DNA of 64,000 nt from a virus (IMGVR_UViG_3300025009_000056); one strand, 5' to 3'. Shown: positions 20,180 to 54,743, numbered from the stretch's first letter. A program made the numbers and translations. Notes: generated by a model from the sequence alone, not told the origin.

Positions 20180-20204
20180 TATTTTCTTTTTTATTATAAG
20201 GAAT

Positions 20205-20245
20205 GTTGCAAAGATACGAAATAAAACAGCCCATGTCAAATTACG
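20205..20245 (-). promoter_or_regulatory. Putative Bacteroidetes-type promoter (-33 TTTG / -7 TATCTTTG) for giant protein 2
   Basis: rc of 20209..20216 = TATCTTTG; rc of 20237..20240 = TTTG, 20-nt spacing; ~29 nt upstream of ATG 20179. Confidence 0.5.
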
Positions 20246-20302
20246 TTTATTAATCAAACAGTAATTTTACACAGGCCGCTACTACACATTCGCTAAACGC
20301 AC

Positions 20303-23720: not shown

Positions 23721-23735
23721 TTTTGTTTTTTGTAG

Positions 23736-24221
23736 TTAGTCCAGTTGCTCGATGCACTCATCAATATGAAAGCAGAACACCACTTCCTCTTTTGGATTTA
23801 TATCAAACACTAAACAGGTATCCTTGTCTATGTCGATATTCATTGATTTAAAAACAAGGCTGTTTTTCAGATTTGAACAAGCACTCTCAAACGATACCGA
23901 TTTAATGGTGCGAGTAAGCGCATTGCCGGAAACACCATATTTGAATATTCTCAATTCATTGGTAAATTGAGATGGATTATTGACAAACATACTTGTTTGT
24001 CCTATATTTATTTTTCCACCCGCAGCGAAATGCCTGCTTACCATGTTAATTGGCGTACATGCGTTGTTTGAAAAAAACGGATACACAACATCAATATCAA
24101 CATCGTCTGAATCAGGAGTCCACCTACCAAATGTGTCAAATAAAACGACTTGTTTTTTATCGGTTTCACTTTTATTTCTTATGCCATAAATCAGGCATGA
24201 AATTGATTCTATCTCACTCAT
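23736..24221 (-). CDS. Hypothetical protein (161 aa)
   Basis: ORF tiling. Confidence 0.45.
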   Translation of the reverse strand: MSEIESISCLIYGIRNKSETDKKQVVLFDTFGRWTPDSDDVDIDVVYPFFSNNACTPINMVSRHFAAGGKINIGQTSMFVNNPSQFTNELRIFKYGVSGNALTRTIKSVSFESACSNLKNSLVFKSMNIDIDKDTCLVFDINPKEEVVFCFHIDECIEQLD

Positions 24222-24255
24222 TGATTTACTGTTTTAAATCCGTTACTCAAAATGA

Positions 24256-24564
24256 TTACCACCTGTTTTTACTGCAATAAAGGAAATAGTAGTCATCGGC
24301 ATACTCTACCTCGTTTTGATTAATTTCGTTTAACTCATCCAGCATACAGAATGATTCAAAATCAACATCATCGGGGTCGCTAACAATCATTTCAGCGCAC
24401 TCTGATTCCGGAACCTCCCTCACCTCCTTAATATCATCAAGGCTATCACAGAGGTCATCCTTAAAAGCACCTGTAATAGCAAAGTTCGCCTCTTTAGCGG
24501 TTATGTAATCAATCTCGTCACCGTTATTATAGGTGATTTCAAAAAGTTTAATTTTGTTTTTCAT
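24256..24564 (-). CDS. Hypothetical acidic protein (~102 aa; ORF track extends to 24621)
   Basis: Internal Met (MKNKIKLFEITY) at 24564 avoids 53-nt overlap with next gene. Confidence 0.4.
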   Translation of the reverse strand: MKNKIKLFEITYNNGDEIDYITAKEANFAITGAFKDDLCDSLDDIKEVREVPESECAEMIVSDPDDVDFESFCMLDELNEINQNEVEYADDYYFLYCSKNRW

Positions 24565-24568
24565 GATT

Positions 24569-24823
24569 TTACTTGTTTTTTTGTTTGTTTTTTTTCCCGA
24601 TTCGATTTTCATCCAGCACACTTATTACTGTATGACGTTTTGTCATTTTATCACAGAAAACATAGGTGAAATCTCCGCTTTGCTTGTACTCAGCAACCAA
24701 GTATGTTCCCGTAAAATGCTCAAATGTCGTTCGCGTACCTAATAAAATTGGCAACGTCATGATTATTTTATCACTCTCGTCATCGCAAAGGATATACTCA
24801 AAAATGCACGTGGATTCAGTCAT
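24569..24823 (-). CDS. Hypothetical protein (84 aa)
   Basis: ORF tiling. Confidence 0.4.
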   Translation of the reverse strand: MTESTCIFEYILCDDESDKIIMTLPILLGTRTTFEHFTGTYLVAEYKQSGDFTYVFCDKMTKRHTVISVLDENRIGKKNKQKNK

Positions 24824-24825
24824 AT

Positions 24826-25149
24826 TTATTGTTTTTGTATTTCGAGAAACACTCCCTGTTCTTCAGCTGTCATTTTATCGAAATTCTTTTTCAGCATTAT
24901 AAATTGCTCACATGACAAAACTTGGTCTCCGTTGAAAATAGGCTCGTCAGTTGTCGTATCATAACCAACAATATCCGTCTGTGATTCACCCATGATTGGA
25001 TTTTTGTTTTCATCGTAAATCCTAACCGGAGTAAAGTTTCTCAGCATCTCACGACTAACGGTAATAGCGGCGCGTAAATCCTCTCTTGATTCAGCCTCAA
25101 ATTCCGTATTTAATTCAAAAACGACAGTTACTTTTTTCTTTTTTCCCAT
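24826..25149 (-). CDS. Hypothetical protein (107 aa)
   Basis: ORF tiling. Confidence 0.45.
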   Translation of the reverse strand: MGKKKKVTVVFELNTEFEAESREDLRAAITVSREMLRNFTPVRIYDENKNPIMGESQTDIVGYDTTTDEPIFNGDQVLSCEQFIMLKKNFDKMTAEEQGVFLEIQKQ

Positions 25150-25181
25150 TATAGTTTTTTGTTATTAGTAATAATCGCAGC

Positions 25182-25565
25182 CTATGTATTCTTTTTCAGC
25201 TCCGCCAATTTTTCATTTGCTTTTTCCAAGCTACTGTAAACAAATGTAGGCATACTCGGGTCTGGGTAATCATAAATAGTTTCACCGCAAACCGAGATAC
25301 GCTCTTCAATAACAAACTCGTGTTCAAAATTGAGTGAATGCGGTATTTTCTTTTTAAATATCCGGTAATATTCTTCGCCAAAATCAATAAAGACACCATC
25401 GCAAGTTGTATAATCCTCCTTATTAAATTCTTTTTCAAATTTAATAAAAAACCTCGCCCCATCCTGAATAGCTATAGCCCATTCCTGCATAGCCAAAGAC
25501 TCACTACTACCGCTTTTAAATTTCGCCAAGCAAGCATCCCAAAGCATTTGTTTTTTTTCGTTCAT
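25182..25565 (-). CDS. Hypothetical protein (127 aa)
   Basis: ORF tiling. Confidence 0.45.
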   Translation of the reverse strand: MNEKKQMLWDACLAKFKSGSSESLAMQEWAIAIQDGARFFIKFEKEFNKEDYTTCDGVFIDFGEEYYRIFKKKIPHSLNFEHEFVIEERISVCGETIYDYPDPSMPTFVYSSLEKANEKLAELKKNT

Positions 25566-25576
25566 GTTTTTTGTTT

Positions 25577-25756
25577 TTAAATTTTACGTTTTAGTTTCAA
25601 AATTTCAAGAGCCGCCTCCTGAATTTGTTCGATTTTTTCATCAGAATATTCGTCACGTCCCCAACAACCATCCGATAAAAATGTCAGCAATTTATTGTAG
25701 GCATTAGATAATAATTCTCTTGCCTTATCAAGTGTCTCATCAGCTTCAGTATGCAT
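25577..25756 (-). CDS. Small hypothetical protein (59 aa; below ORF-track cutoff)
   Basis: Manual translation rc 25756..25577: MHTEADETLDKARELLSNAYNKLLTFLSDGCWGRDEYSDEKIEQIQEAALEILKLKRKI*; fills 200-nt gap. Confidence 0.35.
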   Translation of the reverse strand: MHTEADETLDKARELLSNAYNKLLTFLSDGCWGRDEYSDEKIEQIQEAALEILKLKRKI

Positions 25757-25768
25757 ATTTTTTGTTTT

Positions 25769-27511
25769 TTAAAATTTAAAAAGACTATCAGGGTCAACGG
25801 CGCGGCTTTCCGGTTCTTTTTTCGGCTCCGGTTTTGGTTCCTCTGGTTTTATTTCCTCAGCGGGTTTTTCGTCATCGAAAATATTATCCATGCCGCTATC
25901 ATCAATACTCAAATCATCCTGAACGGCTTTGTCATAATCCTCTGGCGACTGGATAGCTTTACGACTTGTCTTCACAGTCTTTTCAGTTCCCACCTCTTTC
26001 GGCTCGCGTTTTTTAATATCAACAAATATTTTTTTCGCTTTTTCCTTGTTTTCAATTCCGGATTTGGTATCGACAATATCGCCATCCTCAATGTAAATAA
26101 TATTCGGGTCTTCATCCTCCATGTTTACATTGTCAACCTTAGCAATGATAAACTGAATATCATTATCAATACACCACTGATTAATAATCTTACGGTTATC
26201 CTCATCAAGCTTCTCACCATCATCATAGAATACAGCGCGAAGTTTCGGATTCATACTCATGCAGAGTTTAGTAGATATAATCCAGCTTTCAGCACCCGAC
26301 CAGTTTTTAGAAAATGTGCCATTGTAATACACCCCATCCTCGCGGAGTTCCAGACCGTCTACATTTATTTTGGCATCGAGAAGCATTTTCTTTTTCTTTT
26401 CACGCTTTTCCTCAATACTCTTAGTTTTGTCATCGTACTCTTTTTGCTTCTTATCACAATTCTCCTGCTTAAGAATAGCGTCACTGTATGCTTTTGCTTT
26501 TATATTCGTTTCTTCGCAGTTTGCGATTTTCTGCCGCACTTCGTCTTTTTTGGTGTAATCCGGTTCCGGTAAAATAGAAATTTCCGGCTTCAGGTCAAGC
26601 GGCTTTGTGAAATCATCAATCGACAATGAAATCACATTCGATATTTTAAGCAGATAATTTTTTTTCTGCGTGTAAATATCAGTGTGATACGGTTTGAATT
26701 CCACGAATTCATCTTGTCCCACTATCTTATTAGACGGAGCCATTACCCCACCATTCTGCAAAGCCTCATTGATAGACTCTATCTGCTGATTTAGATTACC
26801 AAGCATCTTAACAGCGTTATCTATTAACGACTGTCTGTCGCGCTGCTCATCATTGAATTCTTTAATAATCTCTAATTCTAGCTTTTGTCTATCCTCAAAA
26901 TCCTTTTTTGTCTTTTCGTTTTTAATATCAATTCGGTCACTCTCAGCATTTAATTCGGTAAGCGATACAGATTCTACTTTCTCCGGAATAACAATTTTAC
27001 CAAACTCTTTTACCTCACGACCAACATAGGTGCGCAATGTTTCAAGTTCGGCAATTTCCTTATCTATCTGAGTAAAATCAATCCCCGCGAATTTCATTAA
27101 AAAGGCCAATTGCTCCTCTGGTTTTTTAGACACAAAGGGCATTGGATTGAAACTGATTTCATTAACAAGGCTATCAAGAAATGCCTGTGGTTTTTCTTTC
27201 AATTCAAATCCATCTGACCGACGAACCTGAAACGTGGTTTGACTCCTGTTTTTAGAAAATATTCTACGAATAGTATAGTCTCCGATTTTACCGATTATCT
27301 CCAGCTTTTCTGCGCCATCATTAACAGCGTTAGCGGGAAGCGCGGATACACCCTTGAGTAAAATATCTATAGAGTCAAGCACTGATGTTTTACCCTGACC
27401 GTTTTTGCCTGCGATTTCTATCAATCCGTTTTCAGAAAACGACATCGACATCGCTTTAATTTTACGAAGTCCGGAGACTTGTAGGCCGATTATTTTTAAT
27501 TTGTCTTCCAT
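25769..27511 (-). CDS. SbcC/Rad50/RecF/SMC-family ATPase (580 aa) with central coiled coil
   Basis: Walker A GKNGQGKTSVLDSI; signature-like WSGAES; Walker B LRAVFYDDGEKLD; long charged coiled-coil middle. Confidence 0.6.
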   Translation of the reverse strand: MEDKLKIIGLQVSGLRKIKAMSMSFSENGLIEIAGKNGQGKTSVLDSIDILLKGVSALPANAVNDGAEKLEIIGKIGDYTIRRIFSKNRSQTTFQVRRSDGFELKEKPQAFLDSLVNEISFNPMPFVSKKPEEQLAFLMKFAGIDFTQIDKEIAELETLRTYVGREVKEFGKIVIPEKVESVSLTELNAESDRIDIKNEKTKKDFEDRQKLELEIIKEFNDEQRDRQSLIDNAVKMLGNLNQQIESINEALQNGGVMAPSNKIVGQDEFVEFKPYHTDIYTQKKNYLLKISNVISLSIDDFTKPLDLKPEISILPEPDYTKKDEVRQKIANCEETNIKAKAYSDAILKQENCDKKQKEYDDKTKSIEEKREKKKKMLLDAKINVDGLELREDGVYYNGTFSKNWSGAESWIISTKLCMSMNPKLRAVFYDDGEKLDEDNRKIINQWCIDNDIQFIIAKVDNVNMEDEDPNIIYIEDGDIVDTKSGIENKEKAKKIFVDIKKREPKEVGTEKTVKTSRKAIQSPEDYDKAVQDDLSIDDSGMDNIFDDEKPAEEIKPEEPKPEPKKEPESRAVDPDSLFKF

Positions 27512-27531
27512 TATTGTTTTTGGGTTTGTTT

Positions 27532-27669
27532 TTAGTTTTGGTTATATGGGTAATTACAATTCGGACAAACAGCACATCCGTTTTCGTTATTAACCAGACA
27601 ACATCCGCAATTTGGACAACTATCACCCTCGTCGCGAAGCATGTCGTATAAATCGTCTTTCTTTTCCAT
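27532..27669 (-). CDS. Small zinc-ribbon protein (45 aa; below ORF-track cutoff)
   Basis: Manual translation: MEKKDDLYDMLRDEGDSCPNCGCCLVNNENGCAVCPNCNYPYNQN*. Confidence 0.4.
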   Translation of the reverse strand: MEKKDDLYDMLRDEGDSCPNCGCCLVNNENGCAVCPNCNYPYNQN

Positions 27670-27684
27670 TTTTTTGGTTTTAAT

Positions 27685-28047
27685 TTATTTCAGCCAGATT
27701 CCGGCACTCTTTTTCTCACACTCTTTTGCAAACATATTAGCACTCGCCTCATCCTTGAAAAATTCAATATACTCACTGTTATCAGCGAATTTAAGAACTA
27801 CATATGGTTTGTAATATATCTTACCGTCAGCATCTAAATACTGGTAATCTGGTCTCCACGTATTTTTCATAGCAGCCTCAGCGGTATCGTAGTGATGGTC
27901 ACGATATTTAATCATGTAGAAATTACCCCACTTGTACTTTCCCCTCTTGTTAAATTCCGCCGGAACGAAATAAACTGTGGATTCCTGTTTAGCAACAACA
28001 CTTGCTTTTACAAGGAATTTTAGATTATAATTTGATGTCGTACTCAT
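27685..28047 (-). CDS. Hypothetical protein (120 aa)
   Basis: ORF tiling. Confidence 0.5.
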   Translation of the reverse strand: MSTTSNYNLKFLVKASVVAKQESTVYFVPAEFNKRGKYKWGNFYMIKYRDHHYDTAEAAMKNTWRPDYQYLDADGKIYYKPYVVLKFADNSEYIEFFKDEASANMFAKECEKKSAGIWLK

Positions 28048-28049
28048 GA

Positions 28050-28538
28050 TTATTCGTTTTCATCTTGATAATTACTATCAACATCACTATCGTTTTCAGC
28101 ATTTTTAGGTGCATCTTTTTCAATGAACATCGTATTGATACGCTCCTGTGGAGTCATCATTCTTTGTCGCACCAACATACCGTTCCCGTCGTAAACGCCA
28201 ATCATATCGAGATTGTCAAAACGATAATAATAAACCACACCGGAATCCTCGATTGCTTTTTCCGCAATAGTTATGGCGATTGTTTTAATTCTTTTTTCAA
28301 GAGACTTTTTTTGCTCCCGATAAGCCTTATTTATGTCTTTGAATTTATCATCCGCCTTTTGCATCTCCAATACCAAATCAGATAAATTATGTTCTCTTTC
28401 TACAATTTCATCATCAGTGAGCTTGCGCATAAAATCCTCTTTAGTTGTAATAACCGCATCTCTTTTTAGCTGATTAATACGCTCATTCTGGTCGTAAAGC
28501 TCTGCGTACATTGTTTTCGGAACGATTGTGTTTGCCAT
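28050..28538 (-). CDS. Hypothetical protein (162 aa)
   Basis: ORF tiling. Confidence 0.5.
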   Translation of the reverse strand: MANTIVPKTMYAELYDQNERINQLKRDAVITTKEDFMRKLTDDEIVEREHNLSDLVLEMQKADDKFKDINKAYREQKKSLEKRIKTIAITIAEKAIEDSGVVYYYRFDNLDMIGVYDGNGMLVRQRMMTPQERINTMFIEKDAPKNAENDSDVDSNYQDENE

Positions 28539-28592
28539 GTTTTTTTATTTTTGAGTTTTTGTTTTCTTGTTTTTTAGCTTGATTTTCACAAA

Positions 28593-29063
28593 TCAAGCTA
28601 TCATTTCTTTATATTCAGATTCGAACTGCCTTCCGGCGTATTCCGCCAACTCGCTATTTTTATAGCAGAGGCGCGAACCCGCAGCATTCGCAGCCGTAAC
28701 CCAGAAGTCGTAAGACGTAGCAGCGAACCCGAACGGCGAGGCATTGAAATACGGGTAGTATTTACGTTGTTCCTTATTATTCAAGTCGGCTACCCAAACA
28801 TCATTCAGCGCCTTTGCGATAATCTTTATTTTCTCATAAGCAATCGTATCCTTATCTAAATCAAGAGAAAAATACTTTTTATTAAAGTCCTCCTCCGTTG
28901 TACCGCATTCAATACAGGCATCTGCAAATGTTTTAACACGCAACATTACATTTGATTTACGCTCAATCACCTCACGGAGAGATTTGGCCTCGTCGTTTAG
29001 TTTTTTAGTTTCTTTTTCGATTTCAGCAATACGCTTTTCCGCTTGTTTTTCATTCATTTTCAT
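28593..29063 (-). CDS. Paralog-family protein A (156 aa; N-terminal coiled coil, CIECGTTE, conserved C-terminal PYF-ASPFGF...GSRLCY-SELAEYAG-QF)
   Basis: Clear paralogy with 49778..50257 and 58806..59294. Confidence 0.65.
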   Translation of the reverse strand: MKMNEKQAEKRIAEIEKETKKLNDEAKSLREVIERKSNVMLRVKTFADACIECGTTEEDFNKKYFSLDLDKDTIAYEKIKIIAKALNDVWVADLNNKEQRKYYPYFNASPFGFAATSYDFWVTAANAAGSRLCYKNSELAEYAGRQFESEYKEMIA

Positions 29064-29085
29064 AGCTTTATTTTTTGAGTTTTAG

Positions 29086-30087
29086 TTAAAATTTTATCTC
29101 ATCGTATTTCGCATACGCTGGAATTCCCAAAAGGCAAATTCCACCATCCAAAGAACTGTATATGTCGTAGCTCTTATACTTGTTTCTATTCTGAGCCATC
29201 TTTATTTGCGCCAATCTGGTTTGATACTGCTTCCGGCCAAATTCTATATACTCACTTTGCGCGAGACAGGCAAAAACCATATTATCGTATGGTGGTTCTT
29301 TTTCAATAGCTCCAAAATAGAAATCATAATCATCTGGGTCTTTTCCTACAGCAGCGGCAATAATATCAATATACATTGCGGACTGAATGTGATATTCCAT
29401 TTTGAAAGCCTGCGCCTCAAATCCATTCTTAATTGGAGATGCTGTAATAGATGTTTTCACATCAGCAATATAGGTCGTAATTTTAGAAACATAGTCCGGT
29501 CTGCACTTCAACAAAAGCCGTCTATTTTCCGGAATATTAGCAGCCTCTTTTATGTTCAGGATTTCTACCTTGAAGAACTTTTCGGGGTCTCCGGTTTCCT
29601 CCTGACCAAAATAAAATTTAGCACATGCAAGAAATGAGTACTCACAAATCCCGTTTGCACCATCAAAAATATGCATGTATGATTCTGATTCTTTCGCAAC
29701 CTCAAACATCGCTTTCGCGGTGTCCGTAATTTCTTTGGCTAAACATTTCTTTCCGGCTAATGCGGCCTCAGCCATAAATCTTTCCCGCGCAGTCTTATTG
29801 GCTTTATTCTGATAATTGCTATCTGGATACGGTTTCATATCCTCGTTCCAGATGGCATATTCCGTTTCTATCTTATTCGGCTCAAGAACGAGTGTGTGGA
29901 AATAATTTCCTAAAAGAGTGTCGCGTGTTTCAGTAAATTCCTCCGGATGCTCTTTTTTATACTGATATTGTTTCGGGGTTTTACAACCCTTAATATCTGA
30001 TGGAGATATAAAATCCTTTCGTTTTTTATATACATCAAACGGCTCCTCAAATACAGAGTGTAATGCGCTAAGTTCTTCGGGTTTCAT
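29086..30087 (-). CDS. PD-(D/E)xK exonuclease (YqaJ/lambda-Exo/RecB-nuclease-like), likely partner of RecT
   Basis: LLKCRPDYV (D), IADVKTS ([DE]xK), QSAMY (QxxxY) nuclease motifs. Confidence 0.65.
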   Translation of the reverse strand: MKPEELSALHSVFEEPFDVYKKRKDFISPSDIKGCKTPKQYQYKKEHPEEFTETRDTLLGNYFHTLVLEPNKIETEYAIWNEDMKPYPDSNYQNKANKTARERFMAEAALAGKKCLAKEITDTAKAMFEVAKESESYMHIFDGANGICEYSFLACAKFYFGQEETGDPEKFFKVEILNIKEAANIPENRRLLLKCRPDYVSKITTYIADVKTSITASPIKNGFEAQAFKMEYHIQSAMYIDIIAAAVGKDPDDYDFYFGAIEKEPPYDNMVFACLAQSEYIEFGRKQYQTRLAQIKMAQNRNKYKSYDIYSSLDGGICLLGIPAYAKYDEIKF

Positions 30088-36659: not shown

Positions 36660-37463
36660 TTATTTTATTTCTAAATTACTACACTTTGCACAAACACCAT
36701 TTAAGTGATTTGTCATTTGAAAACACTTCTCACAAAAGTCGAGTTCAAATTTAGGCTTTTGGTTAAAATCAAGAATCCGTTTTAGGTTCGTTTTTCTTTT
36801 TACCTCTGTAAATTCTTTCAGGCGCTCAATAAGCTCCAGTACTTTTTCTCTCGACGGCTCCGGTAAATGATTATTTCCGGAATCAGCTCCGATATTAATC
36901 GCTTTCGGCTTGCAGTCTTTTATCATTTGCACAAACTCATCCATATCAAAATCCATAATAGGCTCAATAGTCACCTCTTTTTCCGGACAGTCAATCAGAG
37001 AGAAATACACCGAGCGCTCTGTCGGCTTCGGAGAGTTAACCATGAATTCCGGATAATGCCTATTTGTTTCAAGCGTGGTGCAAAAAACATTATTTTTCAA
37101 ACCATCAAACTGACCATAGTATTCCAACATGCGCTTTGTGTTCTTTGTCTGGAAATAATATCTATTATTTGGATATTTTTCAACGTGTTTGATTATATTG
37201 GTTATAATTTCATCATGCACATTATCAGCAAACAGGTCGTTTTGTGAAACCATGAAAATCGTTTTATTTTCACCCCAATTCTTTAGCTGTTTAGCATCTA
37301 AAAAAGGCGCACCAGAATATTTTTTCGCTATATTCGGGTATCGGCTAAATCTTTTCGTACTACAATACGAACAATCGTGATAACACTTGCCACCAAGCGG
37401 GTTGCTTCGCACATCAACGAAGTCGTACATGTTGTCGTTTCCTTTTTTCTTACTCATTTTCAT
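36660..37463 (-). CDS. Putative radical-SAM-like protein (CX3CX2C motif near N-terminus; 267 aa)
   Basis: GGKCYHDCSYCSTKRF = CxxxCxxC [4Fe-4S]-binding-type motif; family not resolved. Confidence 0.35.
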   Translation of the reverse strand: MKMSKKKGNDNMYDFVDVRSNPLGGKCYHDCSYCSTKRFSRYPNIAKKYSGAPFLDAKQLKNWGENKTIFMVSQNDLFADNVHDEIITNIIKHVEKYPNNRYYFQTKNTKRMLEYYGQFDGLKNNVFCTTLETNRHYPEFMVNSPKPTERSVYFSLIDCPEKEVTIEPIMDFDMDEFVQMIKDCKPKAINIGADSGNNHLPEPSREKVLELIERLKEFTEVKRKTNLKRILDFNQKPKFELDFCEKCFQMTNHLNGVCAKCSNLEIK

Positions 37464-37978
37464 CCTATTTTAGTGATACAGGCGCTTTTCCATAGAGACA
37501 CGAATTTATCGCGTTTTTTATTTGCAATAATCCTCTCCTTATCCCTATCCATCACACCATCTTCGGAAACCATTATTTCAATCTTATTCCCGACCATCTT
37601 GATAACAAACCCCCATTTCCAATCACATATAGCCGTTCCGGTTCCTATCGCCTTTACGTTTTCTACCGCGACAACATTTTTCATCAATATTGTATGACCC
37701 TCGAATTCTACAAATTGTTCATCTGCGCAGTAGTCAATTTTTACGACAAAACTATCTCCACCGGAACATGTACAGCGGTCTATATTTCCGCCTCTTTCTT
37801 TTCCACAACGATTACAAATAAATCTTACTGATTTCGAGTCAGCCGAATTCAATTCACTCTGGTGAAAATTAACCATTGCGTCGATTACCCACTCCTTCAG
37901 GTAATCCATTTTTTCCATGTAGGCGAGTGTGTTTTCACTCATCTCATCCTCTAATATTACTTTTGCTCTGTTTCTCAT
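37460..37978 (-). CDS. Cys-containing hypothetical protein (~172 aa; ORF track start 38092 trimmed to Met at 37978)
   Basis: ICNRCGKERGGNIDRCTCSGGDSF; trimmed start removes ~100-nt overlap with macro gene. Confidence 0.4.
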   Translation of the reverse strand: MRNRAKVILEDEMSENTLAYMEKMDYLKEWVIDAMVNFHQSELNSADSKSVRFICNRCGKERGGNIDRCTCSGGDSFVVKIDYCADEQFVEFEGHTILMKNVVAVENVKAIGTGTAICDWKWGFVIKMVGNKIEIMVSEDGVMDRDKERIIANKKRDKFVSLWKSACITKIG

Positions 37979-37988
37979 TTTTGTTTTT

Positions 37989-38609
37989 TTAATATTGTAG
38001 GTTCCTGCATTCATCAGTATACAACAGTTGGTGTCTTTGCTGCGCCTCATCCCAATTTTTTGGAAAAGTATATTTTCCAAGCCAAACCTCACTAAATGCT
38101 TTTTTCATTTGTTTAGCGCACACATCGTAAGGAAGTTGACCAACACCAGTGCCAAGTCCACTAATTGTAACCGTATTAAACCGACTCTCACTTGTCAATA
38201 AATTAAATATAGCTTTCGATGCCAGATAAACATTGACTGTGTTTTTTAATATCATCGGAACACGCATGGTTGGTGCTGATATGCAAAAAGGTATTTGCTC
38301 AAAATCAGTTTCAATCAACTCAGCCTGTCCAACCAAAATTTCACCCAAATATTTTTCACGTATCCTTTTCTGAAGTTTATCCTGAATCTGCTTTCCTATT
38401 TTTCTCGTAATAAGCATATCTAATCCACCGTCCATGAATCCGAAAGAATTAGCCGGAGATACAACGCAATCAGTTTTCAAAGAAAAAAAATCCCCGCAAT
38501 AAATAGAAACATCATTACAGTCTTGGAATTGCAATTTCCATTGTTTACACATTTCTTTATTTCTATCTATTAGTTGGAATTTCATCAGGAGCAAATGTTT
38601 TATGTTCAT
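37989..38609 (-). CDS. Macro domain protein (ADP-ribose binding/ADP-ribosyl hydrolase-like)
   Basis: DVSIYCGDFFSLKTDCVVSPANSFGFMDGGLDMLI matches macro signature (..GDIt....DaIVNaAN..l..GGGvd.ai); start may be an internal Met (38552/38585). Confidence 0.6.
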   Translation of the reverse strand: MNIKHLLLMKFQLIDRNKEMCKQWKLQFQDCNDVSIYCGDFFSLKTDCVVSPANSFGFMDGGLDMLITRKIGKQIQDKLQKRIREKYLGEILVGQAELIETDFEQIPFCISAPTMRVPMILKNTVNVYLASKAIFNLLTSESRFNTVTISGLGTGVGQLPYDVCAKQMKKAFSEVWLGKYTFPKNWDEAQQRHQLLYTDECRNLQY

Positions 38610-38889
38610 TTAGATTCACCAACACACCAATCTGATAAAGATATAGTTCATAAACAGGCACACCACCATGTTCTAACCATTGGCAATATTCATCTTTAAA
38701 CCCTCTCAACTTGTATTCTTCTGGCTGAATATGTTTTTCAGCATTATTAAATTGTTCTGGTTTGTATCCTTTACAATATGTATACTCATCACCAATACTA
38801 TCTGATTCGGCTATTTGTTTTGTAATTAAGTACAGGAAATTTAATTCATTTCTGCCTTTACAAATTGTAATTATTTCGTCTATTTTCAT
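38563..38889 (-). CDS. Hypothetical protein (108 aa)
   Basis: ORF tiling. Confidence 0.45.
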   Translation of the reverse strand: MKIDEIITICKGRNELNFLYLITKQIAESDSIGDEYTYCKGYKPEQFNNAEKHIQPEEYKLRGFKDEYCQWLEHGGVPVYELYLYQIGVLVNLNEHKTFAPDEIPTNR

Positions 38890-38903
38890 TTTTGTCTTTT
38901 TAT

Positions 38904-39149
38904 TTAGTTTGTTCCGGCAACAATCTCTCTAACACCATCACTTATGTCGTTAAAAGATTTAAAAAACAAACTTATTTCATTCATCGTTTTCCAAAGTTTA
39001 TCTTTTCTCTCATCGGACATATAATCAAGCATATCCTCTCCAATTACGAAACGTCCCAGTTCGTCATAAACAGGCTTTTCTATCAACTCACATAATTCAA
39101 TTTGAAGCGATTTGAGTTTAGCTGCGTCATATTCACTCATTTTAGGCAT
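38904..39149 (-). CDS. Hypothetical protein (81 aa)
   Basis: ORF tiling. Confidence 0.45.
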   Translation of the reverse strand: MPKMSEYDAAKLKSLQIELCELIEKPVYDELGRFVIGEDMLDYMSDERKDKLWKTMNEISLFFKSFNDISDGVREIVAGTN

Positions 39150-39154
39150 AGTGT

Positions 39155-39466
39155 TTATTTTTCAAGTTTTAATTTAATTGACCATTTTTCAGGAATCCAA
39201 AGTCTTATTTTTTCAACCACAATAGCCGGATATAAATGCCATTTCTTTTTGCAAACTATAACATACCCATCGTCGTGATAGCCAAATCCATAAAATAAGC
39301 CATTAGTGTAATGATGCCAATCCTCGGGATGATTTTTATAATAAATCCCAAAACAGGAAAATCCAACTATTTCATCAATCCGGTTTTCAAGCTTACCTTT
39401 TTTGGGGATAATATTTACCCAAACTTTGTCGCCGGAGCGTAGATTAAAATCTTTAAATATACTCAT
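39155..39466 (-). CDS. Hypothetical protein (103 aa)
   Basis: ORF tiling. Confidence 0.45.
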   Translation of the reverse strand: MSIFKDFNLRSGDKVWVNIIPKKGKLENRIDEIVGFSCFGIYYKNHPEDWHHYTNGLFYGFGYHDDGYVIVCKKKWHLYPAIVVEKIRLWIPEKWSIKLKLEK

Positions 39467-39482
39467 TTTGTTTACAAATTTA

Positions 39483-39920
39483 TTATCGGTTTATTATTTG
39501 ATGCCATGCTTCAGTCGGAACGTGCTTTCTCTTTTCGATTTCCTCATGACATTTGTCGACGTAAGCAATTTTCTCTTTTATTCGCGGGTCATTAAGGTCA
39601 ACTTTTTCTTGAGGCAACTTTTTACCACCTAAAACAGAATCCGCTTTTTTAGATACCATACTCATCTCTTTCCAAGCAAGATTATCACAAATACCACTCA
39701 AGCATCTACGTTCAATTTTCTCACGATTTTCAATACACCAAATAAGGAAACGGAGCTGGTCAATATCGGTTTCCATGCTTCTCCTGAATGCTTCAGAGTC
39801 TCTATCTAAACCACCATAAACACTATGCAATTCATCAAAACAATGTGATGTTTTTATATCTCGTTTTGATTCAGCAAGCCTGTTTTTAAGCATCCGTTTA
39901 ACTGTTATTCTTTTTCCCAT
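39483..39920 (-). CDS. Hypothetical protein (145 aa)
   Basis: ORF tiling. Confidence 0.45.
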   Translation of the reverse strand: MGKRITVKRMLKNRLAESKRDIKTSHCFDELHSVYGGLDRDSEAFRRSMETDIDQLRFLIWCIENREKIERRCLSGICDNLAWKEMSMVSKKADSVLGGKKLPQEKVDLNDPRIKEKIAYVDKCHEEIEKRKHVPTEAWHQIINR

Positions 39921-39959
39921 GTAACAAATTTGTTAGTTACTTCTTAGTTACTTTCTTAG

Positions 39960-40478
39960 TTACTTATCACCCAAAGATAGCTCCAATGTAAGTTCGGTAA
40001 GTATTTTACCTAAAAGATTTTCACCCCAATTTTTAATATTTTGAATAGCCTCGCATTCAAAAAAACCTATTCCCCATATTGTATCATCAGGAGATGCCTC
40101 TACAATTTGAAAGCCTTTGTATTTTAATAATTGCTTTTTCAATTGCGGATTTTGATTAAACTTTTCCCTGAGTCCTTTTTTCACAAGTTCGTATTTAACC
40201 AAATCCCATTTCGCTAGATTAAAATTGCGCACCTCACGGCCTAATTCTTTTTGCCGTCTCGCAGATTGTGCCTGAAGTATTTTATTTGCAGTTTCTTGGT
40301 CGTTAAATGTCATTGCTTTCTGATGCATCATATACTGTTCTCCACAATTATACTTAACGCCATCAACCTCAAAATGAGATTCATGCCAATTGCTGAAAAC
40401 ACCATTCCAAAAGAACATGTATTTTACGCCGTTAAATGTTTTATTCATAAAATAATATTTAATGTATGTAAAATACAC
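39960..40478 (-). CDS. NADAR (YbiA-like, DUF1768) domain protein
   Basis: YMFFWNGVFSNWHESHF...NCGEQYMMHQKAMTFNDQETANKIL...ASPDDTIWGIGF - NADAR family hallmarks (FSNF-like, EQY..QK, SP.D.IWGiG). Confidence 0.6.
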   Translation of the reverse strand: MYFTYIKYYFMNKTFNGVKYMFFWNGVFSNWHESHFEVDGVKYNCGEQYMMHQKAMTFNDQETANKILQAQSARRQKELGREVRNFNLAKWDLVKYELVKKGLREKFNQNPQLKKQLLKYKGFQIVEASPDDTIWGIGFFECEAIQNIKNWGENLLGKILTELTLELSLGDK

Positions 40479-40510
40479 CCCAACCCAAAAATTGAATCGG
40501 GGTGTATTTA

Positions 40511-41992
40511 TTAAAGCTGAGAATTAATTCGCTGTCTGATTTCACTTAAACTTGTCTCTGTGACCAGTTTTCCATCCTCAAAAACAGTTTCCAGCTCCCC
40601 GTAATTTTCTACCTCTCTTGTCACTTGGTCTTCAAGATGTAATTTGTCGACATCGGAATACACATAAAGCAGACCCTTTGCTGATTTTTTAAATCCGGAA
40701 TCAGTTTTTGGATTTTTGAAAATATCCCGCGCTTCACCATTGACCTGCCCCCATGTAGCTTTCATCGCAAATCCAAATGTGTCGCGCGTAACATACTCGT
40801 AAGTGTACGAGCCTATTCCAAAAACAAGATTACTGGCAGAAAATCCTTTCACCTCAAGTTTTTCGAGTATCAGTTTTTGTCTTTCAAGCGTTATGGAATC
40901 GCCGTAAATAAGTCCGACTTTTGGATGTAAAACCTTATACCCCTTTTTGTTAATTTCTCCGCCAAAAATATCCCAAAGGATTTCATATGCACCTTTGCGC
41001 TGGCTTTCCGTAATAAGTGATTCAGGTGTTTCATCATCTCCGCAGATAATTTTCACAGGGTCTCCGCTGTCGGGACGAATAACAACTCTGCCATCTCTGG
41101 CGAGAATTTCATTTTTCAGCGCGGGAAGATATTCTGTCATAACTTTCCAAAAATCCCATGTGTCAGAAACAATACTAACGATACCATTGGGATATAACTC
41201 TGTAATAAGTCTTTTAAATGTATTAATTTCGCCCTCTTTTTCACCAAGGCTCATAACGCTATGCTCGGTAGCGGGAACACTACCACCAATAAGCTCTTTG
41301 TCGGAATCAGCGTTGTAATATTTCTCCAGAAAATCAATCGCTGGGATGGTATCGGTTCCGGTAAAAGACAATAAGTGTGCAGCACCACTCAGTAAAGCAT
41401 CCTCGTTTCCACTCATGCCCCTAAAGCTGAAATCATGCCCCTGCCACTGAATAAAAGATTTGTCATATCCTGTTTTCTCAGCATATTCCTCAAGTCTTTT
41501 GCGATATTGAAAAGCTGTGGTGGCACTCGTGATAGGCTTCCACATAATATTACTCATCAATGTCTCAAAATAATTAGTAAGCCAGAAAAACTTAGGCATG
41601 GTGTTCACAATGGTGAAAACCGGAACACCAATCGGAACCAAACGTCCCTCACTGATAGCCTTTATCCGAATAGGCAAATATCCTAAATCATGGAGTTCGG
41701 CAATATGCTCACACGGGATAGCATCAACACCAAGATAATTATCCATCCGGCGTTTATACTCGCGCAAAACCTGTTCTTTCGGCTTTTCAAAAAACCCCTT
41801 ATTCCACCTTTCAATCAGGTATTCTTTTACAAAATACTGAAGCCCGAAAAACACAACCTCATCTATTCCGGCAATACGGCTCTGTCTGGGTGTAAAGTTT
41901 GAGTAAACATACTCTGTTCCGGCGGGATACTGTCTGCGGTGGTCAGCTTTATACCCGTCGATTAGGCACATTGGATTGATGTCTGTAATCAT
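40511..41992 (-). CDS. Nicotinamide phosphoribosyltransferase-like protein (NAMPT/NadV family; candidate Namat of NARP1)
   Basis: 493 aa; N-terminal DGYKADHRRQYP (cf. NAMPT DSYK.THY.QYP); size and family fit. Confidence 0.7.
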   Translation of the reverse strand: MITDINPMCLIDGYKADHRRQYPAGTEYVYSNFTPRQSRIAGIDEVVFFGLQYFVKEYLIERWNKGFFEKPKEQVLREYKRRMDNYLGVDAIPCEHIAELHDLGYLPIRIKAISEGRLVPIGVPVFTIVNTMPKFFWLTNYFETLMSNIMWKPITSATTAFQYRKRLEEYAEKTGYDKSFIQWQGHDFSFRGMSGNEDALLSGAAHLLSFTGTDTIPAIDFLEKYYNADSDKELIGGSVPATEHSVMSLGEKEGEINTFKRLITELYPNGIVSIVSDTWDFWKVMTEYLPALKNEILARDGRVVIRPDSGDPVKIICGDDETPESLITESQRKGAYEILWDIFGGEINKKGYKVLHPKVGLIYGDSITLERQKLILEKLEVKGFSASNLVFGIGSYTYEYVTRDTFGFAMKATWGQVNGEARDIFKNPKTDSGFKKSAKGLLYVYSDVDKLHLEDQVTREVENYGELETVFEDGKLVTETSLSEIRQRINSQL

Positions 41993-42009
41993 TTTTTAGT
42001 TTTTAGTTG

Positions 42010-42864
42010 TTACAATTCTATTTTAAACTGCGTTACAAGTTCGTTCTTTACGTCTTTGAATGAGTTGGTGGTGTAAATCTTTTTGAAATACTGAGCCAAT
42101 TCATCAAAGCCTTTCGAGAATATCCCATGAGAAACGAAAAGGTAAATGTCTCCGGCATTTTTCTTCTTTAATTCTTTTGCGATACCTACAAAAGTTCCAC
42201 CACCATCACAAATATCGTCAACAATCATGCATGGCGCACCACCTAAATCATCGCAAAAAACCTCAAATCCGCTCAATTTTCCATTGCTTACATCTCGTTT
42301 TTTATCACACTTAACCAGTGATTTGAAATATGCAGCCTTTTCAAAAAGCTCGTTTGATTTTTTATTCGCTCCAGAATCAGGAGAAACTAATACTATCTTA
42401 TTGATAACACCGCGAATATCAGCTATTGCTCTTTCAACATAATTTTCGTTTGAAATATTTACGCAGCCATCAATAAGGGCTGGTGAAATACCAGAATGAG
42501 CATCAAGTACGAAAACGTTATCGAATTTCAATGAGTTAATCAGGTTAGCAAAAACCTTTAATGAAAACGATTCACCATTTACACACACCCTATCCTGTCT
42601 CGCGTATGGAATATATGGCATAACCAAATCGAATTTCTTAACACCCTTTCTTTTCAGTGCGTCATGTGCTAACAGAACCTCCATTAATTTATCACTATCG
42701 GTTATTCGATGAGTGATGACAACGGATTCAATTTCGTCATAATTAATATTGTTATTCAATTTGATATGAACCTCACCGCCATTAAACCGCATATTTTCAA
42801 ATTCGATTTCTGGCCGAAAGGCTACAGGGACAAACATGCTGTCTAAATTAATAGCTCTTTTCAT
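42010..42864 (-). CDS. Ribose-phosphate pyrophosphokinase-like protein (Prs family; candidate ADP-ribose pyrophosphokinase Adps of NARP1)
   Basis: MPYIPYARQDRV (Prs signature), LDAHSG, VSPDSGA, MIVDDICDGGGT (PRPP-binding). Confidence 0.75.
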   Translation of the reverse strand: MKRAINLDSMFVPVAFRPEIEFENMRFNGGEVHIKLNNNINYDEIESVVITHRITDSDKLMEVLLAHDALKRKGVKKFDLVMPYIPYARQDRVCVNGESFSLKVFANLINSLKFDNVFVLDAHSGISPALIDGCVNISNENYVERAIADIRGVINKIVLVSPDSGANKKSNELFEKAAYFKSLVKCDKKRDVSNGKLSGFEVFCDDLGGAPCMIVDDICDGGGTFVGIAKELKKKNAGDIYLFVSHGIFSKGFDELAQYFKKIYTTNSFKDVKNELVTQFKIEL

Positions 42865-45816: not shown

Positions 45817-46299
45817 TTAGATTTGTTCCTCTCTTATTATCCTCCGGATTTCACTGAGCGCGATGGGTGCTTTTCTAACATCCGCGCATACATTAAAATA
45901 CCGTTTGTCGTTTATTGTTTTTTCATGAACGTGTCCATGAATATTAACCTTACCATGCAACTCGTCTGGATGTATCGGGAAATGTGTAAACCAAAACTCA
46001 TCGTGTTTTTTACACCCCATCACCTTATTCACGCACCTCAATAACTCTGGAACATGCTGTGGAAAATCATGATTCCCGAGAATTACATTTATTATTCCTT
46101 TCAACCTTTTTAGCGTGGTGTAATCACCTTTTTCCATCGTAATATCACCAAAAAGATAAACAGTGTCTTTCTTTGTTATCAGGTTGTTCCAACTGGAGAC
46201 GATTAACTCATCCATCTCCTCTGCGCAACTGAAACCCCTCGCTATTGCGATGTTATTATGTCCAAAATGCGGGTCTGAAAAAGCGTATATCTGACTCAT
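45817..46299 (-). CDS. Calcineurin-like metallophosphoesterase
   Basis: SDPHFGH, FGDITMEKG, LGNHDF, HGHVH phosphoesterase motifs. Confidence 0.7.
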   Translation of the reverse strand: MSQIYAFSDPHFGHNNIAIARGFSCAEEMDELIVSSWNNLITKKDTVYLFGDITMEKGDYTTLKRLKGIINVILGNHDFPQHVPELLRCVNKVMGCKKHDEFWFTHFPIHPDELHGKVNIHGHVHEKTINDKRYFNVCADVRKAPIALSEIRRIIREEQI

Positions 46300-51747: not shown

Positions 51748-51815
51748 GCCTGCTGACAGGACTCGAACCCGCAAAATAAGTAGCTAACTTGTGTTATCAA
51801 TTTCACCACAGCAGA
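51748..51815 (-). pseudogene. Truncated tRNA-like element (68 nt: 7-bp acceptor stem, D-arm, canonical T-arm GCGGGTTCGAGTCCTGT, but anticodon/variable region ~5-6 nt too short)
   Basis: rc: TCTGCTGTGGTGAAATTGATAACACAAGTTAGCTACTTATTTTGCGGGTTCGAGTCCTGTCAGCAGGC; acceptor pairs 1-7/66-72; anticodon arm folds only as 4-bp stem with 5-nt loop. Confidence 0.3.
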
Positions 51816-53210: not shown

Positions 53211-53708
53211 TTATTTTCTATTTAAAATTTCCACAACTTTCTCAGCACATATTCTCGTTAATCCATAACCGATGTCAATGCAATCCGGATGGTCGCTATT
53301 GCCGGATGTTTGTACGAAATTATCCATCTGGCTCGGCAGCATATCGGTGCAATCGTCGATTATGCAATAATTCTCCACCTCATCCTTGTGTTCATTCAGG
53401 TATTGTTGAATTTCAAACCCCCTATCAACCTCGTCGTAGTATTCACACACTCCGGTTTCAACCACATCAACCTCATATGGTGTAACATTAATCACTTCTC
53501 CGGCTAATCCGCGATGTTTCCACATTGCTTGCATAACATCCAGCCCATCCGCTTTCCATGTTGAACTAATAACAATTTTGGCTCCGGTTTGCTCGATAAC
53601 ATACCGCAAATTATCCTCAAAATGCCTATGAAACAAACCGCCGAATTCATCACGGTCTACCGGAATCACATTCAATACGCCGTCAATGTCTAAAAATATT
53701 ATTTTCAT
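53211..53708 (-). CDS. HAD-superfamily phosphatase (possibly deoxyribonucleotidase-like)
   Basis: MKIIFLDIDGVLN (DxDx[TV] motif I), ...VISSTWK (motif II-like). Confidence 0.55.
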   Translation of the reverse strand: MKIIFLDIDGVLNVIPVDRDEFGGLFHRHFEDNLRYVIEQTGAKIVISSTWKADGLDVMQAMWKHRGLAGEVINVTPYEVDVVETGVCEYYDEVDRGFEIQQYLNEHKDEVENYCIIDDCTDMLPSQMDNFVQTSGNSDHPDCIDIGYGLTRICAEKVVEILNRK

Positions 53709-54649: not shown

Positions 54650-54668
54650 GATTTCATTTTTTAATTTG

Positions 54669-54743
54669 TGGTTCCGGAGGGACTTGAACCCCCGACCCTC
54701 TGCTTATGAGGCAGACGCTCTATACCAACTGAGCTACGGAACC
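54669..54743 (-). tRNA. tRNA-Met (anticodon CAU; elongator-type; could be tRNA-Ile2 if lysidinylated)
   Basis: rc: GGTTCCGTAGCTCAGTTGGTATAGAGCGTCTGCCTCATAAGCAGAGGGTCGGGGGTTCAAGTCCCTCCGGAACCA; full cloverleaf, anticodon loop CTCATAA. Confidence 0.85.

Follow-up and report, generated by a model that had tools for sequence, protein, structure and literature searches.

NAD+ depletion and signals derived from ADP-ribose (ADPR) are central to bacterial antiviral immunity, and phage countermeasures to them are emerging fast, among them NARP1, NARP2, NARP3, Adpp, RyDEP, AdfN, and AdfM. The NARP1-AP system described by Osterman et al. (bioRxiv 10.64898/2026.01.28.702374) comprises Adps, Adpp, and Namat, for example in Vibrio phage Gary. 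According to the same preprint, 15% of NARP1 phages encode the macrodomain phosphatase Adpp, which converts ADPR-1P to ADPR, and NARP1 then defeats aRES. Also on the NARP1 side is RyDEP of mycobacteriophage DyoEdafos (bioRxiv 10.64898/2026.05.28.727677), a glycosidase encoded next to NARP1 that makes linear ADPR from an ADPR derivative and so supplies NAD+ resynthesis. Two kinds of phage eraser of DNA ADP-ribosylation are already known separately, the NADAR protein AdfN (T4 gp30.3), which acts against DarT1, and the DarG2-like macrodomain protein AdfM (PhiKZ gp104 and PhiPA3 gp108; PMC13309987), which acts against DarT2 of the DarTG2 system. Iyer et al. (2022) noted NADAR beside NadV; for the Macro and NADAR proteins of phages, they predicted that soluble ADPr derivatives are the main targets.

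Here, we analyzed a locus of an uncultured groundwater phage in which Adps, Namat, NADAR, four small open reading frames (ORFs), and a macrodomain gene follow one another on the minus strand. By the window, we mean the whole 64-kb stretch of DNA that was analyzed. The features of the locus are as follows.

42010..42864, minus strand: Adps-like gene, 284 aa; ADP-ribose pyrophosphokinase of NARP1, PRPP-synthetase homologue
40511..41992, minus strand: Namat-like gene, 493 aa; nicotinamide ADP-ribose transferase of NARP1, Nampt homologue
39960..40448, minus strand: NADAR gene, 162 aa, alternative start at 40418; Glu-type N-glycosidase, YbiA/TIGR02464-like
39483..39920, minus strand: small ORF, 145 aa; a 136-aa start is also used by gene callers
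39155..39466, minus strand: small ORF, 103 aa; no match in family search
38904..39149, minus strand: small ORF, 81 aa; no match in family search
38563..38889, minus strand: small ORF, 108 aa; no match in family search; 23-nt overlap with the macrodomain gene start
37989..38585, minus strand: macrodomain gene of the Macro2/Ymx7 type, 198 aa; product predicted to hydrolyze ADPr or to act as an ADP-ribose-1''-phosphate phosphatase

We judge the chances to be evenly balanced that this locus is an extended NAD+ reconstitution (NARP1) module with two feeder hydrolases. It is more likely that the NADAR and macrodomain proteins convert unusual NAD+ breakdown products to ADP-ribose than that they form a paired eraser of ADP-ribosylated DNA, as an earlier note on this sequence had proposed. 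The gene arrangement described in that note was borne out: both domains are real and lie on the minus strand, with 1,374 nt between the macrodomain gene start and the NADAR stop, and the Adps- and Namat-like genes are directly upstream of the pair. Adps is 17 nt upstream of Namat, and NADAR starts 62 nt past Namat. From Adps through a DUF5131 gene, the intergenic gaps range from -62 to +62 nt on a single strand throughout, a spacing compatible with a single transcript; a scan for promoters and terminators found sites no more numerous than in shuffled sequence. Every gene in the window is on the same strand, and adjacency and co-orientation are of limited weight because the whole window is a tightly packed one-strand array. 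The identical gene order was found on several groundwater metagenome contigs, evidently from the same phage, the longest being 195,945 bp. The source is a large uncultured groundwater phage of about 196 kb.

The NARP1 core is solid at the level of sequence. Adps matches Pfam Pribosyltran_N (E = 3.8e-15) and phrog_619 (E = 1.3e-83) and shares 31% identity over 198 aa with Adps of Bacillus phage SPbetaL1. Namat matches Pfam NAPRTase (E = 1.5e-39) and NAMPT_N as well as phrog_448 (E = 4e-209), and is 58% identical over 482 aa to Namat of SPbetaL1, for which both biochemistry and structure have been characterized. The aromatic clamp helix is kept (SFTYQY in SPbetaL1, SYTYEY in the window). Both features that mark NARP1 membership, neighboring Adps and Namat genes and a Namat of the ADPR-PP-specific kind, are present, and Adps adjoins relatives of this Namat in 38 of 41 viral loci. 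Based on homology to the published steps, Adps would convert free ADP-ribose to ADPR-pyrophosphate, which Namat would combine with nicotinamide to give NAD+. NADAR or macrodomain genes beside NARP1 were sought around the closest Namat relatives, with a negative outcome: neither occurs near Namat in any of the 41 loci, including the two closest (L102 and L103; 76 to 80% identity).

The macrodomain protein matches Pfam Macro (PF01661; E = 1.4e-10), Macro_2 (PF14519; E = 8e-8), and phrog_2613 (E = 1e-57), with the Macro_2 score of 32.4 bits exceeding the gathering cut-off of 27. A database search at E ≤ 1e-5 yielded 5,998 homologues, and nearly all of the 120 homologues listed carry a precomputed PF14519 match. 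The true start is most likely ATG 38585 (198 aa), not 38609, because this start was called on 17 independent contigs and is also where homologues begin. Across 33 homologues, N46 and D56 are invariant and G53 and G54 nearly invariant (at least 90%), and the window protein contains the motif Nx6GG[VLI]D. It reads GTGVG where MacroD proteins have the aromatic motif G[VIA][YF]G, and the catalytic loop of the family (VSPANSFGFMDGGLD) is nearly identical to that of yeast Ymx7 (VSPGNSYGYLGGGFD). Retention of catalytic residues, here and in NADAR, indicates that both proteins are more than mere ADP-ribose binders. A fold search returned the Appr-1''-p phosphatase Ymx7 as the best structural match, closest among solved structures, with agreement reaching into the terminal extensions. 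By sequence, the nearest solved relatives, found with both the single sequence and a 33-sequence profile, are MacroD-type and Macro2-type proteins (SauMacro, TTHA0132, Ymx7, and PARP9/14 macro1).

The macrodomain falls outside the DarG (ALC1/TARG1-like) type on which the dual eraser of the earlier note depends. Neither the single sequence nor the profile recovered TARG1, DarG, or Poa1p in the PDB at E ≤ 1, whereas a control search with Adpp found TARG1 at 2e-7 and DarG at 5e-4. The PADLOC DarG model did not match at E ≤ 0.01 but did match the control, Adpp of Vibrio phage Gary, at 3.2e-12, and a sequence alignment of the window protein with DarG, as needed to place an equivalent of the catalytic lysine (K80 in T. 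aquaticus DarG, K84 in TARG1), was not significant. Jankevicius and colleagues are said to have found in 2016 that thymidine-ADPr hydrolysis occurs only in DarG- and TARG1-type macrodomains. A dual eraser, in which the macrodomain clears thymine-linked ADPr (anti-DarT2) and NADAR clears guanine-linked ADPr (anti-DarT1), would be in keeping with two domains whose catalytic residues are intact and with the separate existence of AdfM and AdfN, but the search results argue against it, as does the Macro2 clade itself, whose sole studied member turns Appr-1''-p into ADP-ribose and reportedly lacks de-MARylating activity (PMC6397177). We consider the dual eraser very improbable. Equivalence with the chimallivirus AdfM, which also bears on that reading, was ruled out, since AdfM is PhiPA3 gp108 and the window macrodomain matches a different PhiPA3 gene (‘271’).

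After the NARP1-AP preprint, we had expected the macrodomain protein to be an Adpp homologue. This was ruled out by the lack of sequence similarity (BLASTP against Gary Adpp, E = 0.62) and the different clade. No Adpp homologue was found in the window by tblastn with Gary Adpp (E ≤ 1), and the Adpp role is consequently vacant there.

The NADAR protein matches Pfam PF08719 (E = 2.9e-45), NCBIfam TIGR02464 (147.6 bits; cut-off, 73.7), and the structures 8BAU (E = 4e-14) and YbiA 2B3W (E = 1e-9); its Pfam Phage_Y01A score of 17.8 bits is under the cut-off of 27. The likely start is ATG 40448 (162 aa) or ATG 40418 (152 aa), not GTG 40478. All seven ADPr-contacting and catalytic residues of the P. 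nicotianae NADAR structure 8BAU (E43, K50, K75, R79, E125, D130, and W133) are kept as E37, K44, K67, R71, E117, D122, and W125. Together with N46 and D56 of the macrodomain, these agree with the hydrolase competence that the earlier note had presumed. Glu117 in the last strand places the protein in the YbiA/TIGR02464 type, setting it apart from DarT1 antitoxins, which have Asp there, and from T4 AdfN, which has His. The N-terminal extension of the DarT1-associated antitoxins is also missing, with the catalytic Glu at residue 37 compared with residue 88 in the E. coli C7 NADAR.

These residues bear directly on whether the NADAR acts alone as an orphan antitoxin resembling AdfN, clearing guanine-ADPr from phage DNA, with the macrodomain unrelated to DarT. 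The enzymes opposed could be DarT1-type or pierisin/ScARP-like DNA/RNA ADP-ribosyltransferases. Consistent with such a role, the catalytic set is complete, and all NADAR subtypes tested so far remove ADPr from guanine in vitro (PMC11125620), with hydrolysis of G-ADPr also seen on RNA (PMC11833690). Additionally, ectopic expression of the phage NADARs Bas32 and Bas60, whose clades differ from that of AdfN, reverses DarTG1, though not DarTG2 (PMC11257639), and NADARs of Bas60-related coliphages (phi92 and Vequintavirinae records) are 36 to 39% identical to the window NADAR. Against it are Glu117 in place of the DarT1-associated Asp, the missing extension, the lack of a PADLOC DarG match, and the YbiA-like TIGR02464 score, given that E. 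coli YbiA failed to rescue from DarT1 (PMC11125620). An anti-DarT role would also leave unexplained the recurrent embedding of related NADARs in NARP1 and NARP1-AP operons. No ART or DarT match from Pfam or PADLOC, as a DarT1 neighbor would give, was found among the ORFs scanned in 36660-42864. We regard the orphan antitoxin as rather unlikely. The anti-DarT1 activity suggested for this protein in the earlier note is supported in part: it is possible because all NADARs tested hydrolyze guanine-ADPr, and the catalytic set is kept, but the Asp and extension of the DarT1-associated antitoxins and the His of AdfN are not.

We surveyed 45 IMG/VR loci with NADARs 40 to 58% identical to that of the window, taking 8 kb as the neighborhood. 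Namat was found in 27 of these, Adps in 22, and an Adpp-like macrodomain in 23; after clustering at 90% identity, Namat was present in 18 of 30 clusters and the complete Adps, Adpp, NADAR, and Namat set in 12 of 30. Some form tight same-strand Adps-Adpp-NADAR-Namat operons (e.g., L019 and L021). In the control set of 48 loci with Macro2-type genes, neither Adps nor a close Namat relative was detected (0/48), and three showed weak and only partial similarity to Namat (29% identity over 217 aa). The difference in NARP1 linkage was significant (Fisher p = 9e-12, with those three partial matches scored negative). Across these 48 loci of other viruses, Macro2-type genes are not linked to NARP1; the connection of the macrodomain to NARP1 is based on this one phage, on biochemical logic, and on proximity, the gene being sixth downstream of Namat. 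Elsewhere, Macro2-type genes often have genes for tail, virion, or polyvalent proteins as neighbors.

In a rough neighbor-joining tree, the window NADAR grouped with five loci (L007 to L010 and L043) that have no NARP1 within 8 kb; this sister branch is mostly devoid of NARP1. At the variable position of the ‘S[NQ]W’ motif, the window protein has Asn, and the NARP1-embedded subclade has Gln. No cultured phage was found to carry a NADAR of that subclade; the best cultured matches are at most 53% identical, and those inspected showed no NARP1 link.

The window itself offers a further possible source of ADP-ribosylated substrates. It encodes two polyvalent proteins of ∼3,000 aa with ART domains, with an ART-PolyVal match in the ORF at 1925-11074 (E = 8e-15) and two matching stretches in that at 11129-20257 (E = 1e-32). 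The hydrolases may serve these enzymes, limiting or reversing self-ADP-ribosylation or recycling ADPr, while NARP1 replaces the NAD+ consumed. Iyer et al. observed ART genes together with Macro and NADAR genes in large myoviruses, in agreement with this idea, but the ART genes here are 18 to 36 kb away in another part of the array, and we consider it improbable. Alternatively, the two proteins could be unconnected housekeeping passengers that are near NARP1 by coincidence, with NADAR acting on reactive riboflavin intermediates, in the manner of the N-glycosidase YbiA, and the macrodomain on Appr-1''-p from RNA repair. The NADAR score above the TIGR02464 cut-off, a HAD domain of RNA-repair proteins at 53211-53708, and the dispersal of Macro2-type genes over many phage contexts are compatible with that view. 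Neither Tpt1/KptA nor an RNA ligase was found among the ORFs scanned, however, and a riboflavin role would not account for the NARP1-embedded NADAR relatives, making passengers quite improbable.

The four small ORFs (145, 103, 81, and 108 aa) that occupy the NADAR-macrodomain interval had been suggested to encode accessory factors or inhibitors. They are lineage-specific orphans, and nothing in the searches pointed to any such role. Pfam, PHROG, and PADLOC gave no match for any of the four. An exhaustive HMMER search with the 145-aa ORF found 23 weak homologues, mostly 60 to 120 aa long and aligned to its N-terminal ∼70 residues, and this ORF is missing from all related NADAR, macrodomain, and Namat loci. 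The 103-aa ORF has no relative among the 134 related viral loci, and the 81- and 108-aa ORFs have none in the related NADAR, macrodomain, and Namat loci.

Returning to the extended NARP1 module, we propose that the downstream hydrolases would broaden the range of NAD+-derived molecules entering the pathway. The macrodomain protein may strip the 1''-phosphate from ADPR-1''-phosphate, which RES-type NADases such as aRES generate, leaving ADP-ribose; it would then be a non-orthologous replacement of the Adpp phosphatase drawn from a different macrodomain clade. The Glu-type NADAR would free ADP-ribose from a nitrogen-linked adduct, the candidates being nucleic acids or nucleotides that bear ADPr on guanine or cytosine and N-linked ADPR signals (cADPR variants and His-ADPR). 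NADAR activities demonstrated to date concern base-linked ADPr in nucleic acids and riboflavin intermediates only, with none on soluble ADPR signals. The earlier suggestion that the hydrolase products feed Adps and Namat would fit, by analogy, the published NARP1-AP and RyDEP precedents.

A bolder form of this proposal, which we put forward tentatively as a possibility, is that the Glu-type NADAR clade is a previously unrecognized NARP1 accessory that converts an N-linked ADPR product or immune signal of a host defense system to ADP-ribose, the macrodomain having independently taken the Adpp role. Candidate signals would be cADPR/N7-cADPR, His-ADPR, and ADP-ribosylated guanine or cytosine nucleotides. 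Such a NADAR would destroy an immune signal and at the same time refuel NARP1, as Adpp does with ADPR-1''-P and RyDEP with 2'/3'cADPR, from a position inside Adps-Adpp-NADAR-Namat operons or, as in the window, straight after Namat. If NADAR is a NARP1 feeder, host defense is expected to yield a product with ADPR in N-glycosidic linkage whose recycling is beyond NARP1 alone. Different macrodomain clades may have given rise to the NARP1-AP phosphatase step on more than one occasion. If the NADAR merely erases guanine-ADPr, the locus is another case of the published AdfN principle.

Compared with NARP1-AP, the window has the same Adps/Namat core pair and a macrodomain gene within the gene array, and it has an additional NADAR. 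The chemistry of Adpp (ADPR-1''-P to ADPR) has been demonstrated, whereas that of the window macrodomain is predicted; Adpp belongs to a Poa1p/TARG1-like clade and the window protein to the Macro2/Ymx7 clade. NARP1-AP was defined by a macrodomain Pfam match within two genes of Adps/Namat, and the window protein has the match at a greater distance. With yeast Ymx7 (YMR087W; PDB 1njr), the founding Macro2-type ADP-ribose-1''-phosphatase, it shares PF14519, the loop SPxNSxGxxxGGxD, and the motifs ‘PT..P’ and ‘GL.TG’, although identity is about 23%, the lengths differ (284 aa in Ymx7, 198 aa here), and the window context is viral. Like AdfM, it is a single-domain phage macrodomain, but of another clade and failing the DarG HMM. 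Like AdfN and NADAR-Bas32/Bas60 (PMC11257639), the window NADAR is a stand-alone protein of a phage and keeps the catalytic core; its last-strand residue is a YbiA-type Glu, compared with His in AdfN and Asp in DarG1, and, unlike those phage proteins, it lies directly behind Namat and has relatives embedded in NARP1 operons. RyDEP has an unrelated fold (RyR domain) and cleaves the O-glycosidic ribose-ribose bonds of 2'/3'cADPR, whereas NADARs cleave N-glycosidic bonds, but the logic of a NARP1-side glycosidase that yields linear ADPR is common to RyDEP and the role proposed here for the window NADAR.

All genes of the 64-kb window lie on the minus strand. Pfam matches bore out the earlier note's pairing of a macrodomain with a NADAR protein at this locus, with genes slightly shorter than those it listed. 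In the direction of transcription, the array reads:

42010-42864, minus strand, Adps-like protein (284 aa), first gene around the locus
40511-41992, minus strand, Namat-like protein (493 aa)
39960-40448, minus strand, NADAR protein (162 aa; Pfam NADAR, E = 2.9e-45)
39483-39920, minus strand, small ORF (145 aa)
39155-39466, minus strand, small ORF (103 aa)
38904-39149, minus strand, small ORF (81 aa)
38563-38889, minus strand, small ORF (108 aa)
37989-38585, minus strand, macrodomain protein (198 aa; Pfam Macro, E = 1.4e-10; Macro_2, E = 8e-8, exceeding the cut-off)
37460-38050, minus strand, ORF without assigned function (196 aa)
36660-37463, minus strand, DUF5131 radical-SAM protein, phage Gp37/Gp68-like (267 aa)

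Intergenic gaps from Adps through the DUF5131 gene are -62 to +62 nt, and the identical gene order recurs for this phage on several contigs from groundwater metagenomes, of up to 195,945 bp. A scan for consensus promoters and terminators found sites no more commonly than in shuffled sequence. Co-transcription of the array is plausible. The DUF5131 gene and the 196-aa ORF overlap by 4 nt, the latter and the macrodomain gene by 62 nt; translational coupling of all three is possible. Database matches give the 145-aa ORF the look of a fusion, ∼20 small proteins (60 to 120 aa) aligning with its first ∼70 residues only and two others with residues ∼91 to 144 only.

By homology, the gene pair upstream of NADAR is NARP1, the NAD+-rebuilding pathway in which Adps converts ADP-ribose to ADPR-PP and Namat combines ADPR-PP with nicotinamide. 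The Namat-like protein shares 58% identity over 482 residues with Namat of Bacillus phage SPbetaL1, an enzyme with a determined structure and ADPR-PP specificity (PMC12774641), and keeps the aromatic helix of its “selectivity clamp” (SFTYQY) as SYTYEY. The Adps-like protein and SPbetaL1 Adps share 31% identity. Of 41 viral loci that encode a Namat relative, 38 have Adps next to it.

The macrodomain is of the Macro2/Ymx7 type, not the DarG type. Its family is large (5,998 homologues at E ≤ 1e-5) and highly conserved, with N46, D56, APTMRVP, and GLGTGVG invariant or nearly so. The confident AlphaFold2 model (pLDDT 93.7) best matches yeast Ymx7 (PDB 1njr; Foldseek E = 1e-11, all 198 columns), deposited as an ADP-ribose-1''-monophosphatase, and the catalytic loops of the family profile and Ymx7 are near-identical (VSPGNSYGYLGGGFD against VSPANSFGFMDGGLD). 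PDB searches with the sequence and with the profile gave no TARG1, DarG, or Poa1p at E ≤ 1. As a control, we used Adpp, the macrodomain phosphatase of Vibrio phage Gary (aRES preprint, Table S1), which found TARG1 (2e-7), SCO6735, and DarG (5e-4) there and matched the PADLOC DarG model at 3e-12; the window protein matched no PADLOC model. Homology to Adpp was rejected, there being no detectable similarity to the Gary protein, as was identity with AdfM, the phage macrodomain that counters DarT2: AdfM is PhiPA3 gp108, and the window protein matches a different PhiPA3 gene. YMR087W (Ymx7) has been placed in a separate “Macro-2 type” clade, whose sole studied member converts Appr-1''-p to ADP-ribose and lacks de-MARylating activity, with DarG, TARG1, and Poa1p in the ALC1-type clade (PMC6397177). 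Given this clade and the unmatched DarG model, the earlier premise of a DarG-type macrodomain is unlikely. The Asn/Gly-Gly/Asp catalytic loop is kept, and therefore a protein that lacks hydrolase-competent residues and only binds ADP-ribose is also unlikely. We regard a full dual eraser, with the macrodomain clearing thymine-linked and NADAR guanine-linked ADP-ribose, as highly improbable.

The NADAR protein (NCBIfam TIGR02464, 147.6 bits; cut-off, 73.7) retains all residues that contact ADPr or serve catalysis in the P. nicotianae structure 8BAU (E43, K50, K75, R79, E125, D130, and W133; PMC11543638), aligned as E37, K44, K67, R71, E117, D122, and W125. The last-strand residue separates YbiA-type (Glu), DarT1-associated BC4488-type (Asp), and T4 gp30.3/AdfN (His) subfamilies (PMC11125620); it is Glu here, the N-terminal extension is absent, and we classify the protein from its sequence as Glu-type. 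All four tested subtypes removed ADPr from guanine, not thymine, in vitro, and neither YbiA nor the T4 protein protected cells against DarT1 toxicity in that study (PMC11125620); later work found that AdfN, NADAR-Bas32, and NADAR-Bas60 counter DarTG1 (PMC11257639). G-ADPr RNA is likewise a substrate (PMC11833690), and NADARs also act on C-ADPr. Anti-DarT1 activity of the window NADAR is therefore possible, and the principle is already published for phage NADARs. That it is a stand-alone, AdfN-like anti-DarT1 factor we consider possible, if unlikely. The protein also matches the PADLOC candidate defence component PDC-M42C (E = 1.3e-38), and thus close NADARs are also used on the bacterial defence side; the match to the NCBIfam “NADAR family anti-phage protein” is weak (43 bits; cut-off, 240).

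We then considered 45 IMG/VR loci (L numbers) encoding NADARs 40 to 58% identical to that of the window. Within 8 kb of NADAR, Namat occurs in 27 loci, Adps in 22, and an Adpp-like macrodomain in 23; among 30 clusters at 90% identity, Namat is present in 18 and Adpp in 14, and 12 contain the full set of Adps, Adpp, NADAR, and Namat. The four-gene clusters are often tight same-strand operons (Adps-Adpp-NADAR-Namat in L019). Such operons, in uncultured phages, lie at ∼6.2 to 10 kb in each locus (L019-L023, L027, L033, L036, L049, and others). Adps or a close Namat relative was found in 0 of 48 Macro2-type loci, three showing a Namat-like match that is weak and partial (29% identity over 217 aa); NARP1 linkage differs between NADAR and Macro2-type loci (Fisher p = 9e-12, the three counted negative). 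That macrodomain and NADAR serve unrelated housekeeping is very improbable. Extra ORFs recur between Adps and Namat (L012, L014, L015, L018, L024, L030, L034, L039, and others); by eye, families of ∼110 to 117 aa (8 loci) and ∼155 aa (3 loci) resemble nucleoside 2-deoxyribosyltransferase/SLOG proteins, and one of ∼270 aa (4 loci) resembles Thg1.

There are caveats to this genomic context. In a rough neighbor-joining tree the window NADAR groups with five loci lacking NARP1 within 8 kb, and it carries Asn at a position occupied by Gln in the NARP1-embedded subclade. The N-terminal motif reads S-Q-W in nearly all embedded NADARs (alignment of L007-L051 and the window) and S-N-W/F in the window protein, YbiA, 8BAU, and phi92 and Kayvirus NADARs, which may mark a difference in specificity. 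No NADAR or macrodomain was found near the closest relatives of the window Namat, no NARP1 linkage among the cultured-phage NADARs inspected (phi92, phiSA012, Bosa, and WH1), and no close member of the embedded subclade in cultured phages.

Two adjacent minus-strand ORFs of ∼3,045 aa each (1925-11074 and 11129-20257) match “ADP-ribosyltransferase in polyvalent proteins” (PF18760; E = 8e-15, and 1e-32 in two stretches, respectively); the first additionally matches LPD1 and, weakly, a methyltransferase. The phage thus has ARTs of its own, and these probably enter the host by injection with the virion. Elsewhere, Macro2-type genes adjoin tail-fibre genes (Gifsy-1 and SEN4/5 prophages), and in a T4-like phage (L144/L145, 5001-5624 and flanks) a 63% identical homologue lies between an intein-bearing portal gene and a polyvalent protein of at least 2,274 aa with an InPase domain. 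These neighbors suggest virion association in other phages. That macrodomain and NADAR service the phage's own ARTs is improbable. The window also encodes a HAD domain of “Swiss Army Knife” RNA-repair proteins (53211-53708, E = 8e-24), a small calcineurin-like phosphoesterase (45817-46299), two tRNAs (Ala-AGC, 51748-51815; Met-CAT, 54668-54743), and a recombination module (22698-30087) with RecT (E = 7e-37), an SbcC-like AAA_23 protein, and a DUF3799 PD-(D/E)XK nuclease.

The most economical reading, held with moderate confidence, is an extended NARP1 module in which macrodomain and NADAR would both deliver ADP-ribose, their substrates and any coupling of the macrodomain to NARP1 being predicted; homology establishes the NARP1 core, the clade assignments, the intact active sites, and the operon statistics. 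NADAR directly follows Namat, and the window has NARP1, no Adpp homologue, and a macrodomain from the only other clade in which Appr-1''-p phosphatase activity is known. Adpp dephosphorylates ADPR-1''-P, the aRES product, allowing NARP1 to rebuild NAD+ (bioRxiv 10.64898/2026.01.28.702374), and the glycosidase RyDEP converts 2'/3'cADPR to ADPR for NARP1 (bioRxiv 10.64898/2026.05.28.727677). Iyer et al. (2022) reported NADAR genes beside NadV and NadM and predicted that the substrates are soluble ADPr derivatives; we came across neither NADAR in the NARP1, NARP1-AP, and Namat papers nor, in the papers searched, an account of Adps-Adpp-NADAR-Namat operons. NARP1, its combination with a macrodomain phosphatase, phage NADARs against DarT1, a phage macrodomain against DarT2, and the joint presence of Macro and NADAR in large phages are all published. 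What is new is that NARP1 and NADAR are combined with a Macro2-type macrodomain instead of Adpp and, from the related loci, that a NADAR clade is recurrently embedded in NARP1-AP operons.
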